This document shows, piece after piece, positions 3,440 to 8,725 of a stretch of DNA of 42,378 bases (within the stretch, counting starts at the first letter, position 1; every line of letters begins with the position of its first letter). A program made the translations under genes and the position numbers. The notes below the pieces were generated by a model, which was not told where the DNA came from, did not search any database, and saw only the letters and a list, made by a program, of their open reading frames with translations. The DNA comes from Escherichia phage LF82-23: the sequence record PV660458. One strand, written 5' to 3'.

Positions 3440-3791
3440 CATCCACTCGCGTATGGGTGCAGTGGAGGCTCGTATGCAATCCGTAGAACTTCGACTCGAC
3501 AAGCACGAGGTACAAATCGCGACCCTCGAAAAGGGTGATGCTGCAATGCTGGCCAAGTTAGCGGAGAACGATACCCGCTGGCAGACGGTTCAACAGCAGC
3601 TCCTTGTGGTTGAGCAAATTCAGGACATTCAGAAGACTATGAGCCACATCGGTAAGTTGTTCACGGCGGCGGCTCACGCTGTCAAATGGTGTCTCTTAAC
3701 TGCATCCCTGTGTAGCGGTATCTACTTAGCAATCAAGGCTGGTGACTTAAGCTCACTGCAAGCCTTCATCACTACACTACTGGGGATGTAA
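3408..3791 (+). CDS. membrane protein, holin candidate
   Basis: 127-aa ORF; predicted coiled-coil N-terminal region then hydrophobic C-terminal segment (AAAHAVKWCLLTASLCSGIYLAI); stop overlaps endolysin start (TAATG). Endolysin lacks a signal/SAR sequence, so a holin is expected here. Confidence 0.4.
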   Translation: MTEAKKEPTPNIHSRMGAVEARMQSVELRLDKHEVQIATLEKGDAAMLAKLAENDTRWQTVQQQLLVVEQIQDIQKTMSHIGKLFTAAAHAVKWCLLTASLCSGIYLAIKAGDLSSLQAFITTLLGM

Positions 3792-4327
3792 TGACTAACT
3801 TTGAAATCTGTATGCGGTTCACCGGGCTGGCAGAAGGTGGTTACACCAAGCTGCCCGGCGATACCGGAGGGGAAACGAATCATGGAATTAGCGACGCTCG
3901 TGATGGCAAACTGGATGGCCGAGCTTGTGGTGTCCCTACTGGGCTTGGCGGCACTATTTGTGTACCTATCAAGCAGCTCACCAAAGCACAAGCCGAAGCA
4001 ATCTATCGACGGGATTACTACACCCCCATCCGAGGTGACGAACTTCACCCTGCGATTGCATGTGCCGTGTTTGACTACGGTGTCAACTCCGGTGTCTCCC
4101 GTGCGGCGAAAGCTCTACAGCGGGTATGCGGCGTTGCACAAGACGGGATTGTTGGCCCTGCTACCGTGGCAGCAGCCAAACGTCTGGAACCTCACTCCGC
4201 AGCAGCAGCCATCTGTGACCTTCGTATTGCGTTCCTAAAGGCTTCTACAGCCCCGACAGTGGTTCGCTATAGGGATGCCTTGGTTGCTCGTGCAAAACGC
4301 TGTAGCGCTTACTGTGCGACGCTGTAG
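3791..4327 (+). CDS. endolysin, glycoside hydrolase family 108-like N-terminal domain plus C-terminal peptidoglycan-binding-like domain
   Basis: N-terminal motif FTGLAEGGYTKLPGDTGGETNHGI matches the GH108 EGGY...D.GG.T..GI signature; C-terminal region resembles PG_binding_3-type domains; last gene before the non-coding terminus. Confidence 0.8.
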   Translation: MTNFEICMRFTGLAEGGYTKLPGDTGGETNHGISDARDGKLDGRACGVPTGLGGTICVPIKQLTKAQAEAIYRRDYYTPIRGDELHPAIACAVFDYGVNSGVSRAAKALQRVCGVAQDGIVGPATVAAAKRLEPHSAAAAICDLRIAFLKASTAPTVVRYRDALVARAKRCSAYCATL

Positions 4328-4900: not shown

Positions 4901-5060
4901 TCTAGCGATACTATATCACTATAGACACTTTCATAATTATCTATTGATATCAGTAACTTATAACCTATCTGATAACGGTATTCTGACCAGTGTTATGATT
5001 ATCTAATCAAACTTTAATCCTAATGATTACAGTAACTTATCACTTTTCTTGAAAATAATA
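4901..5060. repeat. AT-rich block with clustered short GATA/TATC-type palindromes (candidate terminus/ori/packaging region)
   Basis: TTGATATCA, TATCTGATA, TGATTATCTAATCA, CAGTAACTTAT x2 seen directly; lies between the A-depleted block and the early promoters. Confidence 0.5.
4919..4934 (-). promoter_or_regulatory. inverted copy of conserved 16-mer ATGAAAGTGTCTATAG (candidate phage RNAP promoter element)
   Basis: Reverse complement of 4919-4934 is identical to 25618-25633; extended match about 27 nt with one mismatch. Confidence 0.35.
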
Positions 5061-5061
5061 C

Positions 5062-5091
5062 TTGCAAACTGTTTTGGTTTTGTGCTGTAAT
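5062..5091 (+). promoter_or_regulatory. sigma70-type early promoter P1
   Basis: TTGCAA (5062-5067), 18-nt spacer, TGTAAT (5086-5091) preceded by TGn extended -10. Confidence 0.6.
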
Positions 5092-5165: not shown

Positions 5166-5194
5166 TTGACAAGGCAAGCTCACTATGCTGTAAT
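5166..5194 (+). promoter_or_regulatory. sigma70-type early promoter P2
   Basis: TTGACA (5166-5171), 17-nt spacer, TGTAAT (5189-5194) with TGc extended -10. Confidence 0.7.
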
Positions 5195-5302
5195 GCTTCC
5201 ACGTCAGCCAGCAAGCTAAACAGTCATTGATAAAGACGTTAAAACACACGCAGGCAAACTGGTACGGGTTATTCATCTCAGAACGGGCGCTGAATAAAAC
5301 GG

Positions 5303-5331
5303 TTGACAGGATGAAACGAGTATGCTGTAAT
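5303..5331 (+). promoter_or_regulatory. sigma70-type early promoter P3
   Basis: TTGACA (5303-5308), 17-nt spacer, TGTAAT (5326-5331) with TGc extended -10. Confidence 0.7.
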
Positions 5332-5382
5332 ACGCTCCAGATTGACAGGGCAGCAAGCCAGTCAGTCAGAAGTAAAAAGTAG

Positions 5383-5411
5383 TTGACACGCTGAATACGA
5401 TGTGATGTAAT
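5383..5411 (+). promoter_or_regulatory. sigma70-type early promoter P4
   Basis: TTGACA (5383-5388), 17-nt spacer, TGTAAT (5406-5411) with TGa extended -10. Confidence 0.7.
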
Positions 5412-5843: not shown

Positions 5844-6233
5844 ATGTACCGTATCTATGCAAGCGCATATCGTCAGGGCAACGCTGAGTCAGTCAATCTG
5901 GCGCTTCATTGCAAGGCACTGCGAACGGTGCAGGACATGTTCGGAGTGGTTCCGGTCACACTGACAGGCAAGTTCGACAATGCGTATGAGTTAAGCATGG
6001 TCTTCCCTGTCGATGGAATCTACGAAATCCGACAGGCTGTTAAGCTGTTTTGTAAAGCCTTCGAACAGGACTGCATCATGGTAGTGACCAAAGACGACGA
6101 TGCAATCTTCATGGACTCACCGTATCCGGGTAAGCCTGCTGGCAAGCTGGTCAGCAAGACTAACGAGGAAATGGAAGCCGGGCAGCATACCGCTTGGACT
6201 TACGATGGTGAGCAATTTTGGGTAGTGGAGTAA
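5844..6233 (+). CDS. hypothetical early protein (129 aa)
   Basis: First ORF after promoter array and leader; GGAG 9 nt upstream of ATG. Confidence 0.6.
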   Translation: MYRIYASAYRQGNAESVNLALHCKALRTVQDMFGVVPVTLTGKFDNAYELSMVFPVDGIYEIRQAVKLFCKAFEQDCIMVVTKDDDAIFMDSPYPGKPAGKLVSKTNEEMEAGQHTAWTYDGEQFWVVE

Positions 6234-6244
6234 GGAGCATGACT

Positions 6245-6316
6245 ATGTTCACTGCACTGTGTGTTATTGCGGCGGCGTGTTGGGTTATTGACCAGCGCCT
6301 GCCTAAGCGAGCCTGA
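6245..6316 (+). CDS. tiny hydrophobic peptide (23 aa), candidate small membrane protein
   Basis: AAGGAG (6232-6237) 7 nt upstream of ATG 6245; peptide MFTALCVIAAACWVIDQRLPKRA; below the 60-aa floor of the ORF track. Confidence 0.3.
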   Translation: MFTALCVIAAACWVIDQRLPKRA

Positions 6317-6317
6317 T

Positions 6318-6401
6318 ATGTGGGACTTACTGGTAGCGTTATTCTGGTTCGTCTTTGCAGGCTTGTGGATTTACTGGCTGACTCGTCCCAAATTATGGTG
6401 A
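6318..6401 (+). CDS. tiny hydrophobic peptide (27 aa), candidate single-pass membrane protein
   Basis: ATG 1 nt after the stop of the preceding tiny ORF (possible coupling); peptide MWDLLVALFWFVFAGLWIYWLTRPKLW has an 18-residue hydrophobic core. Confidence 0.3.
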   Translation: MWDLLVALFWFVFAGLWIYWLTRPKLW

Positions 6402-6465
6402 CTGCCTAATGCGTCTTGCGAGGCGCATTGTGAAGTAACCAACCAACAACCCGACGAGGTGTATC

Positions 6466-6993
6466 ATGACTACTGTTAAATATACTGCATTCAAAGACGC
6501 TGCCGCTCTGGACAAGGCTATTGAGTCTACCGTCAAGAAGGCGCACTCACTCCGTAACGAGATTCAGAACGTTGCGGTCGGTATCATCCTGCACGCTTAC
6601 CATCACGGCGACTACACTCGTGCTGAATCCTTCGTGAATCAGCTCGGTCAGGGTGTCCGTGGCAAGGCGCTGGTAGACTGGTTCGTCAAGTTCGGCGGCC
6701 TGATTATCGGTGAGAACGGCGGTAAACAGGGCTTCATCGGCTGGCAGGGCGCTGAGTACATCAAGGCGAACATCGACACGGCCAAAGCCACCATGTGGTG
6801 GAGCATGAAGCCTGAGCAGGCGTTCGAAGGCTTCGACCTGCAAGATGCGCTCGAAAAGCTGATTGCCAAAGCTGAGAAGGCGCTGAACAAGGCCAATGAG
6901 CTGCGTCACGAAGGCAAGGACGAAGACGCGAACAAGGTAGTCGTGCCGCAGAACGTCCTCGACCTGCTGCGCAAGGCTAAACAGGCTGCCTAA
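6466..6993 (+). CDS. hypothetical early protein (175 aa)
   Basis: ORF with GAGGTG 6 nt upstream of ATG; preceded by hairpin AATGCG-N10-CGCATT (6408-6429). Confidence 0.6.
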   Translation: MTTVKYTAFKDAAALDKAIESTVKKAHSLRNEIQNVAVGIILHAYHHGDYTRAESFVNQLGQGVRGKALVDWFVKFGGLIIGENGGKQGFIGWQGAEYIKANIDTAKATMWWSMKPEQAFEGFDLQDALEKLIAKAEKALNKANELRHEGKDEDANKVVVPQNVLDLLRKAKQAA

Positions 6994-7007
6994 GCGGGAT
7001 TGACTCA

Positions 7008-7045
7008 AGCCAGTGTCACGGCGCTGGCTTTATGGCAATTCTGCC
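7008..7045 (+). promoter_or_regulatory. conserved early intergenic unit 1: hairpin (AGCCAG/CTGGCT) + GGCA-N4-TGCC element
   Basis: Stem 7008-7013/7024-7029; GGCAATTCTGCC 7034-7045; 34 nt from GGCA to ATG of next gene. Confidence 0.5.
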
Positions 7046-7067
7046 CCAACCATTTAGGAGCTTCACC

Positions 7068-7349
7068 ATGTCTATCAAAACTGTAACTGCTTTCATCACC
7101 AAACGCGACGGCGAACTGTACGGCTTCGCTGTGTCTCTGAACGAAGGCCAGTACCTGCACCATGTCCGTGAAGACGGCGAGCCGACTGAGGCTGCTGGTA
7201 TTCTGGAAACGCTGGCTGGTATCCCGCTGCCGCATGAGTTCATCATCATGCTGGCTGAGCAGGACGAAGACGAGCTGAAAGCGCGTCACGGTAGCGGCCT
7301 GACGCTGGAAGAAATCGGCACCTTCGAAGCCGAGGTTGACGACGAGTAA
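7068..7349 (+). CDS. small acidic early protein (93 aa)
   Basis: AGGAG 9 nt upstream; ORF-track start 7032 lies inside the conserved upstream element, so the downstream ATG was chosen; acidic C-terminus (EAEVDDE). Confidence 0.6.
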   Translation: MSIKTVTAFITKRDGELYGFAVSLNEGQYLHHVREDGEPTEAAGILETLAGIPLPHEFIIMLAEQDEDELKARHGSGLTLEEIGTFEAEVDDE

Positions 7350-7360
7350 GCGTTGTCCTG

Positions 7361-7398
7361 CTGCGCCTTCAACGAGGGCGCAGCGTGGCAATAATGCC
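7361..7398 (+). promoter_or_regulatory. conserved early intergenic unit 2: hairpin (CTGCGCC/GGCGCAG) + GGCA-N4-TGCC element
   Basis: Stem 7361-7367/7377-7383; GGCAATAATGCC 7387-7398; 34 nt to ATG. Confidence 0.5.
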
Positions 7399-7420
7399 TT
7401 ACTCAATCGAGGGTTTTACT

Positions 7421-7762
7421 ATGACTATCAAACTGGTTCTGCTGTCCAACATCGCTGCCTCTGCTTTCGGTGAAGGCGTTCCGGCTGACGCTATCACCAG
7501 CGAGTGGGTTGGCTTCACTCAGGACGGTGAGAACTACCTGATTGCAGGCCGCAACCGCGACGGCGACAGCGCTGAGCAAATCGTTGCGCACTTCGACAAC
7601 GACAGCAACTTCGCAGAGTTCCGCGAGTCCGGCTTCCCGCTGGAGCTGTTTGCTCTGATGGGCGGTCACTCCTTCCTCAGCACTGAAACGCTGGGTGAGG
7701 GCGTGGTTATCAACGTGCTCAAAGAGTACGACGCGGAAGACGATATCGACTTCAACGCGTGA
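7421..7762 (+). CDS. small acidic early protein (113 aa)
   Basis: Conserved RBS context GAGGGTTTTACTATG; acidic C-terminus. Confidence 0.6.
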   Translation: MTIKLVLLSNIAASAFGEGVPADAITSEWVGFTQDGENYLIAGRNRDGDSAEQIVAHFDNDSNFAEFRESGFPLELFALMGGHSFLSTETLGEGVVINVLKEYDAEDDIDFNA

Positions 7763-7769
7763 TACCTTA

Positions 7770-7806
7770 CTGCCTCGTTGCGACGGGGCAGTGCGGCAAT
7801 CATGCC
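7770..7806 (+). promoter_or_regulatory. conserved early intergenic unit 3: hairpin (CTGCC/GGCAG) + GGCA-N4-TGCC element
   Basis: Stem 7770-7774/7787-7791; GGCAATCATGCC 7795-7806; 33 nt to ATG. Confidence 0.5.
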
Positions 7807-7827
7807 CTAACCTTTTGAGGATTCAAT

Positions 7828-8103
7828 ATGTCCACTATCAATGTGTTTGCACTGAACAACGGCGGTCTGGCTTTCATCGTAGGCGAGACCAAAGACAATG
7901 CACCGTCGCTGGGCGTGCAGCCGAAGCCGGACGCAAGCCACGATGAAGTAATCGGTGAAGTGCGCGAGGCGCTGGAAGACCTCGGCGGTATGCTGATTGC
8001 CATTCAGGGTGGCAAGCTGTCGGTTGAAAAGCTGAACGAACTGGAGCCGCGCTTCATCACCAGCTTCGAAGCCGACAACGTAGACGCGGCTGACTTCGAG
8101 TAA
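7828..8103 (+). CDS. small acidic early protein (91 aa)
   Basis: Conserved RBS context TGAGGATTCAATATG; acidic C-terminus (EADNVDAADFE). Confidence 0.6.
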   Translation: MSTINVFALNNGGLAFIVGETKDNAPSLGVQPKPDASHDEVIGEVREALEDLGGMLIAIQGGKLSVEKLNELEPRFITSFEADNVDAADFE

Positions 8104-8135
8104 TCAACCAACCATCAAGCAACAGGAGTACGAGC

Positions 8136-8372
8136 ATGGCTAAGTTTGAACTGGTACGCTTCATCGACCCGAACGATGGTGAAGTAACCTTCGCACAATT
8201 CACTGCCGACCGTGCGCTGGTAGCAGTGTACACCAGCGAGCGTTACGGTCGCTTGAAGCTGGGCAAGGAAGAAAACTTTGACAGCGTAGAGTATGTGCTG
8301 GCGCAAGGTGACGAGTACGCCGACGCTGTGCAGGCTGCGCTGGATGAAGGCGAAGTCGTAGAGACTGCGTGA
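8136..8372 (+). CDS. small acidic early protein (78 aa)
   Basis: AGGAG 8 nt upstream of ATG; acidic composition. Confidence 0.6.
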   Translation: MAKFELVRFIDPNDGEVTFAQFTADRALVAVYTSERYGRLKLGKEENFDSVEYVLAQGDEYADAVQAALDEGEVVETA

Positions 8373-8379
8373 TTTCTGT

Positions 8380-8418
8380 CTGCCCTTGCATAGTCGAGGG
8401 CAGTAGGGCAATCATGCC
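8380..8418 (+). promoter_or_regulatory. conserved early intergenic unit 4: hairpin (CTGCCC/GGGCAG) + GGCA-N4-TGCC element
   Basis: Stem 8380-8385/8398-8403; GGCAATCATGCC 8407-8418; 34 nt to ATG. Confidence 0.5.
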
Positions 8419-8440
8419 ACAACTAACTGAGGGTTTTACC

Positions 8441-8725
8441 ATGGCTAAAGTAACTGCATACTACTCCGCTTCCCAAAAAGATATCGTTGCAATCGTGGGC
8501 GATGGCTTCGAAGAAGGCAACATGGCGCTGTGTATCTCTGGCTGCCACGCTGTACCGGAACTGAACACGGTTGAAGATGCGAAGGCGGCGCTGCCGTACC
8601 TCGAATCTGATATCAGCCGCATGGGTGACTTGGCGTTCCTGCTGAACGGCGGCACCTTGAACGAAGGCGCGGCTGAGAACATGCCTGCTCAGGGCTACGA
8701 AGCGATTGGTAGCTTCGAGGTCTAA
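8441..8725 (+). CDS. small acidic early protein (94 aa)
   Basis: Conserved RBS context TGAGGGTTTTACCATG; ORF-track start 8369 rejected as upstream extension. Confidence 0.6.
   Translation: MAKVTAYYSASQKDIVAIVGDGFEEGNMALCISGCHAVPELNTVEDAKAALPYLESDISRMGDLAFLLNGGTLNEGAAENMPAQGYEAIGSFEV

Follow-up and report, generated by a model that had tools for sequence, protein, structure and literature searches.

Candidate T7-type RNase III processing sites fused to a conserved leader box in the early operon of a Bonnellvirus coliphage

The early region of Escherichia phage LF82-23 (sequence record PV660458; the window analyzed here is the whole stretch of 42,378 bp) holds four short intergenic units, U1 to U4, each located upstream of a gene for a small acidic protein (P1 to P4; Table 1). 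An earlier note, made from the letters of this DNA, had described these units as hairpins with a palindrome and had offered RNase III-type processing sites, operators for a dimeric regulator, or translational control elements as possible functions. Here, we report that the units specify an RNA structure with clear covariation, resemble the early RNase III sites of phage T7, are conserved in related phages, and mark a recombinant junction in one of them. From these features we infer cleavage, the position of the cut, and the role of a near-invariant box within the units. Our preferred reading, to which we assign a probability of about 0.7, is that the units are T7-type RNase III processing sites fused to a lineage-specific leader box and that they also serve as recombination joints. 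The interpretation offered in the earlier note is thus partly supported.

Results

A repeated box at a fixed distance from four start codons

The exact motif GGCAATNNTGCC occurs four times in the window, at positions 7034, 7387, 7795, and 8407, always on the + strand; 0.12 occurrences are expected, and none of 100 shuffled sequences reached four. Every copy sits 3' of a GC-rich hairpin and 5' of a Shine-Dalgarno sequence and an ATG codon. Because the true starts are 7068, 7421, 7828, and 8441, the box-to-ATG distances are 34, 34, 33, and 34 nt, respectively. The motif count and the corrected starts therefore confirm the claim of four repeated units placed 33-34 nt before a start codon, and inverted repeats and folding bear out the GC-rich stem-loop described for each of them. 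Other details of that description required revision. The proposed common initiation context, TGAGGGTTTTAC(C/T)ATG, holds for U2 and U4 and fails for U1 (TAGGAGCTTCACCATG) and U3 (TGAGGATTCAATATG). The unit limits had been drawn too short, as the units also include a 5' arm, GCGnnATT, located at the stop codon of the preceding gene or beside it. Finally, the GGCA-N4-TGCC palindrome is present, but folding of the sense strand identifies it mainly as the 3' arm of a lower stem.

Table 1. Features of the early region of phage LF82-23 and promoter motifs in the window. Cut positions are predictions drawn by analogy with T7.
Feature	Position	Strand	Details	Predicted cut
Phage-polymerase promoter motif AATGAAAGTGTCTAYWRKG	4917-4935; 11326, 25617, 25886, 39009	-; + (last four)	Five matches vs 0.06 expected	
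Sigma-70-type early promoters, TTGACA/TTGCAA-N17-18-TGTAAT	5062-5091, 5166-5194, 5303-5331, 5383-5411	+	Read from sequence	
S-adenosylmethionine (SAM) lyase gene	5844-6233	+	First early gene; PF23780, E=1.4e-27	
Box-less extended stem-loop 5' of 175-aa gene	6396-6441	+	Inverted repeat I1, folds; orthologous sites are weak covariance-model matches	
175-aa gene, 5' of U1	6466-6993	+	phrog_1448, function unknown	
U1	6994-7045	+	Fold; covariance-model match, 73.4 bits; 5' arm GCGGGAUUG 6994-7002, straight after TAA stop 6991-6993; upper stem 7007-7016/7021-7030, loop CACG; 3' internal-loop UAU 7031-7033; box GGCAAUUCUGCC 7034-7045	7033/7034
P1	7068-7349	+	93 aa, isoelectric point (pI) 4.35, net charge -15; own family, restricted to this phage group	
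U2	7344-7404	+	Fold, z = -4.1; outer stem GAGUAAG 7344-7350 (holds TAA stop) pairs with CUUACUC 7398-7404; arm GCGUUGU 7350-7356; upper stem 7360-7367/7377-7384; box 7387-7398	About 7386/7387
P2	7421-7762	+	113 aa, pI 4.05, net charge -16; own family; paralogues in J8-65 and Lidtsur	
U3	7757-7806	+	Fold, covariance-model match; 5' arm GCGUGAU 7757-7763 (last Ala codon and UGA stop of P2); upper stem 7770-7777/7784-7791, loop UUGCGA; box 7795-7806	About 7794/7795
P3	7828-8103	+	91 aa, pI 4.21; P4 paralogue	
P3b	8136-8372	+	78-aa acidic protein; no unit upstream	
U4	8367-8418	+	Fold, covariance-model match; 5' arm GCGUGAUU 8367-8374 (Ala codon and UGA stop of 78-aa gene); upper stem 8380-8388/8395-8403; box 8407-8418	About 8406/8407
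P4	8441-8725	+	94 aa, pI 4.07	
Box-less stem-loop	9827-9869	+	Lower stem UGAUAA/UUAUCA around stop codon; covariance model E=0.007; fold -30.1 kcal/mol; ends P4-P5-P6 block	

The units fold into a covarying interrupted helix

On the sense strand, CAAUnnUGC of the box pairs with an upstream arm, GCGnnAUU(G), that overlaps or abuts the preceding stop codon (folding z-scores of -2.2 to -4.1). The lower stem thus formed (7-9 bp), an asymmetric internal loop, and a GC-rich upper stem of 9-11 bp make up an interrupted helix of ~20 bp, i.e., about two helical turns, which is the length that RNase III needs.

The early regions of 14 relatives yielded 41 distinct units, so the upstream elements are indeed conserved in related phages. 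In 34 of these 41 units, the minimum-energy structure is the extended one, in which box and upstream arm pair. The box is invariant except for its two N positions, which covary with their partners (UC/GG, CC/GG, AA/UU, CA/UG, UA/UG, and AG/CU, and also UA/UA in phage LIMEzero). Relatives also show compensatory exchanges in the outer stem of U2 (GAGUAAG/CUUACUC to GAAUAAG/CUUAUUC) and in the upper stems of U3 (CUGCCUCG/CGGGGCAG to UUGCCUCC/GGGGGCAA) and U4 (CUGCCCU/AGGGCAG to CAGCCCA/UGGGCUG). In a MAFFT alignment of 28 distinct units, the upper helix is 99.6% paired, with two-sided changes at 9/9 of its pairs, and the lower helix is 74.2% paired; a model-based alignment of 55 distinct units from 29 sources gives 99.8%, again 9/9, and 81.8%, respectively. 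In the latter, three pairs of the lower helix covary, a G.U pair is retained in 52/55 units, and the covariation score reaches 0.551; shuffles score 0.139, and sliding the pairing partners gives no more than 0.098. The conserved G.U pair, together with weak minus-strand matches of the covariance model, places this structure in the RNA of the mRNA strand. The units therefore form the about-two-turn interrupted helix, with covariation support, that characterizes a T7-type site.

No Rfam family matched anywhere between positions 4300 and 12000, and two distant relatives (44-48% identity in the 175-aa gene), in which the genes are tightly packed, carry no units. At 7757-7762 and 8367-8372, and in many relatives, the final GCG (Ala) codon and the UGA stop of the upstream gene open the 5' arm. 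Several unrelated proteins thus probably owe their C-terminal alanine to constraints on the RNA structure, not to the function of the protein.

Likeness to the early RNase III sites of T7

For comparison, the five T7 early sites were taken at their published coordinates; the extracted sequences end in the classic ...CCUUUAU↓GAU (the arrow marks the cleaved bond). U1 reads GAUUG-ACUCAAGCC...GGCUUUAU-GGCAAU, and T7 R0.3, R0.5, and R1.1 read ...ACUCAAGG...CCUUUAU↓GAU, such that GACUCAAG...CUUUAU↓G (ACUCAAG...CUUUAU↓G) is common to all four. AAGC/GCUU in U1 likewise resembles AAGG/CCUU in T7. A covariance model built from the units alone matches T7 R0.5 with E=6e-5, R1 with 0.11, and R1.1 with 0.21, and the upper stem of T7 R1 (CAGGUCAUCUGCGGGUGGCCUGAAU) is nearly base-for-base that of a box-less site in phage J8-65 (CAGGCCAUCUGCGGGUGGCCUGAAC). 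The U1 consensus and the match of the model to T7 R0.5 lead us to read the units as T7-type RNase III sites.

The likeness extends to genomic context. Sites R0.3, R0.5, R1, R1.1, and R1.3 of T7, also an Autographiviridae coliphage, are likewise placed between genes of an early operon transcribed by the host, adopt the same interrupted ~20-bp helix of upper stem, internal loop, and lower stem, and, in R0.5 (GAGUGAUAG), include the upstream UGA stop in the 5' arm as GCGUGAUU does here. In LF82-23, however, the 3' arm of the lower stem is a near-invariant 12-nt box, self-folding and at a fixed distance from the start codon, whereas lower arms of T7 vary from site to site. The internal loops of U2 to U4 also differ from those of U1 and T7, with GU↓GG, UGC↓GG, and UAG↓GG, respectively, at the predicted bond. 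Furthermore, cleavage has been mapped experimentally at the T7 sites and is predicted for the units, which reside in a phiKMV-like lineage in which the RNA polymerase gene adjoins the structural genes. RNase III-type sites are annotated in none of the records of this lineage that we examined.

The box belongs to the leader of the downstream gene

The distance between box and start codon is 31-37 nt in 64 of 66 distinct contexts, with a mode of 34 nt. The spacing is kept even for those boxes of J8-65, Lidtsur, LIMEzero, and the uncultured contig L050 that follow a full stem-loop already equipped with a lower stem. This constancy assigns the box to the downstream leader, and in most units the leader box doubles as an arm of the lower stem. 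LIMEzero has four box copies, two of them with U9 changed to C; phage LIMElight also has the box, including the variant GGCAUGUUGCC, with matching changes in its 5' arm. Of 40 loci retrieved from IMG/VR by a pattern scan, ~25 are genuine units, in podophage contigs of 43-45 kb, and these units carry many different upper stems. The known distribution thus comprises Bonnellvirus, Waewaevirus, Limelightvirus, and uncultured relatives.

On its own, GGCA-N4-UGCC can form a mini-hairpin with a free energy of about -3.5 kcal/mol, and its computed probability is 0.8-0.99 in the leader as it would be left after cutting. Modeling therefore suggests a mini-hairpin at the new 5'-monophosphate end of the downstream message.

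Units as joints in cassette turnover

Phage mellemsur is devoid of four genes, P1 through the 78-aa gene, and has only one unit, which consists of the 5' half of the box-less site that follows the 175-aa gene and the 3' half of U4, joined in the loop; this deletion is the product of recombination between two units. The chimeric stem-loop (4072-4146 in mellemsur, compared with 3572-3645 and 5300-5374 in record L001) accompanies a deletion of ~1.9 kb, and its hybrid upper stem holds a G-G mismatch. One unit type can also precede different genes: the U1 type lies before P1 in LF82-23, before a homologue of the 78-aa gene in J8-65, and before a P2-like gene in Lidtsur. Being repeated and conserved, the units therefore serve as homologous recombination joints. 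Uncultured contigs L045 (966-2107) and L050 (10804-11653) contain three to four units each, ~360-390 nt apart.

The PeSL cassettes of T4-type phages (PMC2839356, PMC4122927) are comparable in that a short conserved intergenic stem-loop motif recurs before small uncharacterized genes in an early region of variable content, and genes are deleted or swapped by recombination between copies. The units described here nonetheless lack a sigma-70 promoter, their stem-loop is not terminator-like, and RNA processing within one transcript is proposed for them instead of re-initiation of transcription. With only ~37 nt between hairpin and ATG, there is no room for a -35 element, a -10 element, a start site, and a Shine-Dalgarno sequence.

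Scans of the units for sigma-70 promoters or intrinsic terminators found none. A sigma-54 promoter was discarded on reading the sequence, since the GG-to-GC spacing is three bases short, and so was a promoter for the phage polymerase, the actual motif of which lies elsewhere and is unrelated to the box.

The encoded proteins

P1 to P4 had been described as acidic proteins of 93-113 aa with similar N termini, suggestive of a duplicated gene family. Their acidity stands (pI 4.05-4.35), but the lengths are in fact 93, 113, 91, and 94 aa. Relatedness holds in part. All-against-all BLASTP found no pairwise similarity among the four proteins, whereas clustering of 41 unit-linked proteins made P3 and P4 paralogues (83% by hhalign, or 96% via a Lidtsur intermediate), with an end-to-end alignment in which G20, G70, and G71 are invariant. 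P1 and P4 are linked marginally by hhalign (E=1.6e-3), and P2 matches none of the others. As no unit precedes P3b, this gene would be co-cistronic with P3.

The AlphaFold2 model of P4 is confident and has the order strand-strand-strand-helix-helix-helix-strand. That of P2 shows a similar order of strands and helices at low confidence (predicted local distance difference test score of 73) and does not match models of the P3/P4 family. As regards the suggestion that these proteins may mimic DNA, the models of P4 and P2 have no Ocr/ArdA-type fold, and sequence comparison did not reveal membership in such families either. Searches of the small proteins against Pfam, NCBIfam, and PDB returned nothing informative; the only PHROGs match is that of P4 to phrog_32287, of unknown function, and a hit of P1 to PDZ domains (E=0.015) was taken as chance. 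None of the early proteins has recognizable nucleic-acid-binding domains. These families are small and specific to this phage group: among 5.8 billion proteins, P2 accounts for 4 clusters and the P3/P4 profile for 24, and an exhaustive search with the latter gave 17 matches in 1.84 billion representatives. Four of these 17 are far longer proteins (523-5438 aa), two of them repetitive or of low complexity by Pfam, and were treated as spurious. In LIMElight, three adjacent genes (ORF7-ORF9) encode the P4 fold.

P1 to P4 share with Ocr and ArdA a small size, strong acidity, and genes located where the early region begins, here also adjoining an anti-restriction gene (SAM lyase). Nearly all early proteins are acidic, however, so acidity does not single out P1 to P4. 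Given the SAM lyase neighbor and the turnover of these genes between phages, host-takeover or anti-defense roles are conceivable and, by analogy, plausible.

The early operon and its promoters

The layout of open reading frames (ORFs) identifies the window as the circularly permuted, ~42-kb genome of a T7/phiKMV-like podophage, a Bonnellvirus coliphage. Its genes all lie on one strand; terminase comes first, the DNA polymerase has 829 aa, and the gene for the 810-aa RNA polymerase immediately precedes those for portal, capsid, and tail proteins. The nearest records are Bonnellvirus phages of Escherichia, Enterobacter, Cronobacter, and Kosakonia, with 80-93% identity across the region. The left genome end lies at ~4.3-4.9 kb. 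The units are placed between the host-type early promoters and the first + strand promoter of the phage polymerase (Table 1), and therefore within the early operon transcribed by the host polymerase.

The four strong host-type promoters had been overlooked by a consensus scanner, and an untranslated leader of ~430 nt separates them from the SAM lyase gene. Phage T3 likewise has a SAM lyase as its first early gene. Between the SAM lyase and 175-aa genes, two tiny back-to-back ORFs, 6239-6316 (25 aa) and 6318-6401 (27 aa, counted from ATG codons), each encode mostly a hydrophobic segment and may specify small membrane peptides. The 175-aa protein, with a pI of 8.7, is the sole basic early protein; it has counterparts as far away as LIMEzero and two distant contigs, and PDB and Pfam searches gave no match for it. 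The minus-strand copy of the phage-polymerase promoter, near the left genome end, is directed leftwards, away from all genes, and may parallel those T7 promoters near the genome ends that act in replication or packaging.

Discussion

Our data suggest a mechanism that is familiar from T7; what is new is its occurrence in a phage group without prior annotation of it. The host RNA polymerase would make a polycistronic early transcript from the promoters at about 5.06-5.41 kb, in which each unit would combine two modules. The first, an RNase III site made of lower stem, internal loop, and upper stem, would be cut once by the host enzyme, in the 3' strand of the internal loop and directly before GGCAAU, as the T7 analogy predicts. 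The upstream message would then end in the upper hairpin, a potential barrier to 3' exonucleases, and the operon would be split into messages for the 175-aa protein, P1, P2, P3 plus P3b, and P4-P5-P6 onward. In T7-type sites, internal loops restrict RNase III to one cut that leaves protective 3' hairpins (PMC1540722). The second module would be the ~34-nt leader of the downstream gene, consisting of the box, a CA-rich spacer, and the Shine-Dalgarno sequence. After the cut, the short lower stem, by then intermolecular, would fall apart, and GGCA/UGCC could refold into a hairpin at the 5'-monophosphate end to slow 5'-end-dependent decay or tune translation. As recombination joints, the same units would allow small early genes to be gained, lost, and reshuffled.

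A more ambitious version of this scheme, which we offer tentatively and regard as rather doubtful, would make the box a processing-coupled switch that acts as lower stem before the cut and afterwards as a 5' hairpin or factor site setting message stability and translation, and the whole unit a portable joint for swapping small acidic, possibly anti-defense genes. Several observations weigh against the proposed processing and role of the box. The T7 internal-loop consensus is found in U1 only. The upper stems of U2 to U4 have G-C or U.G pairs at their base, of the antideterminant type defined in the uR1.1 model substrate, in which a G-C pair beside the scissile bond reduces cleavage 7-14 fold (PMC1540722). 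These units may therefore be poorly cut, cut elsewhere, or only bound. As to the leader, LIMEzero variants GGCAAUCACGCC and GGCAAUUCCGCC break an A-U pair of the proposed mini-hairpin, and where the box follows a complete site, cutting would leave 8-12 unpaired nt before the hairpin, which weakens the idea of 5'-end protection. The mini-hairpin pairs never vary and are thus uninformative for covariation, and pairing in the lower stem does not explain a box that is almost invariant throughout, C12 and GG included.

Such observations give some room to other explanations. The hairpins could remain uncut and act as stabilizing 3' structures or weak attenuators, similar to repetitive extragenic palindromes or terminators, with the T7 likeness reflecting ancestry without RNase III reactivity, at least in U2 to U4. 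The missing ACUCAAG/CUUUAU loop consensus in these three units, the antideterminant-type pairs (G-C or U.G) next to their predicted bond (PMC1540722), and a short U-run after the U1 stem are in line with this view. We nevertheless consider it unlikely: a terminator scan detects none of the four units, the U-run is confined to U1 and the same CCUUUAU is a cleavage site in T7 rather than a terminator, and an exonuclease barrier has no need of the covarying lower stem that supplies the two turns required by RNase III. Similarly improbable to us is that the box, GGCAAUnnUGCC, is primarily a protein binding site, either an RNA translational operator or a DNA dyad operator, that coordinates the cassette genes, arm pairing being secondary. 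Conservation far above pairing needs, a spacing of 31-37 nt that is kept even when the box is detached from the stem, and the GGCA/UGCC symmetry retained in GGCAUGUUGCC of LIMElight argue for such a site. Yet no candidate binding protein was found, the early proteins lack recognizable nucleic-acid-binding domains, the two N change in step with the remote 5' arm, and the change of U9 to C improves arm pairing while breaking the dyad. For the operator of a dimeric regulator put forward in the earlier note, read as a DNA site, the symmetry is limited to 4+4 bases (GGCA/TGCC) and no promoter is nearby for it to control; G.U pairs and model matches on the + strand only point to RNA. The RNase III option raised there is instead favored by structure, covariation, and T7 likeness, which make cleavage itself a reasonable expectation.

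A third explanation, possible albeit less probable than RNase III processing and compatible with it, is that the units are primarily mobile regulatory cassettes, PeSL-like, conserved by and for recombination. This is what the chimeric unit at the mellemsur deletion joint, the occurrence of unit types beside different genes in J8-65, Lidtsur, glasur, and ROV85, the tandem arrays in several genera, and the PeSL precedent (PMC2839356, PMC4122927) would suggest. Recombination alone, however, leaves the pairing-preserving compensatory changes unaccounted for, invariance persists across phages in which the neighboring gene is just 64% identical, and a + strand scan shows the promoter that defines PeSL cassettes to be absent from the units. 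We thus favor T7-type RNase III sites that double as recombination joints.

The units may also matter as DNA. Cloned T7 RNase III-site palindromes trigger Lamassu DdmABC-dependent cell death in Vibrio cholerae (PMC11707656), and arrays of such sites may therefore affect which hosts can be infected. By analogy, the units could be palindromes sensed by Lamassu-type defenses (PMC11707656), and site arrays in this phage group could act as DNA-level defense triggers.

To conclude, our findings would extend the textbook scheme of T7 early-mRNA processing to a phiKMV-like lineage that encompasses Bonnellvirus, Waewaevirus, Limelightvirus, and uncultured relatives, and they provide a ready covariance model for annotating the intergenic regions of these phages. 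The invariant leader box is a compact candidate for an element through which RNase III cutting could affect what becomes of the downstream message. As recombination joints, the units would account for the reshuffling of accessory early genes, the usual seat of anti-defense functions.

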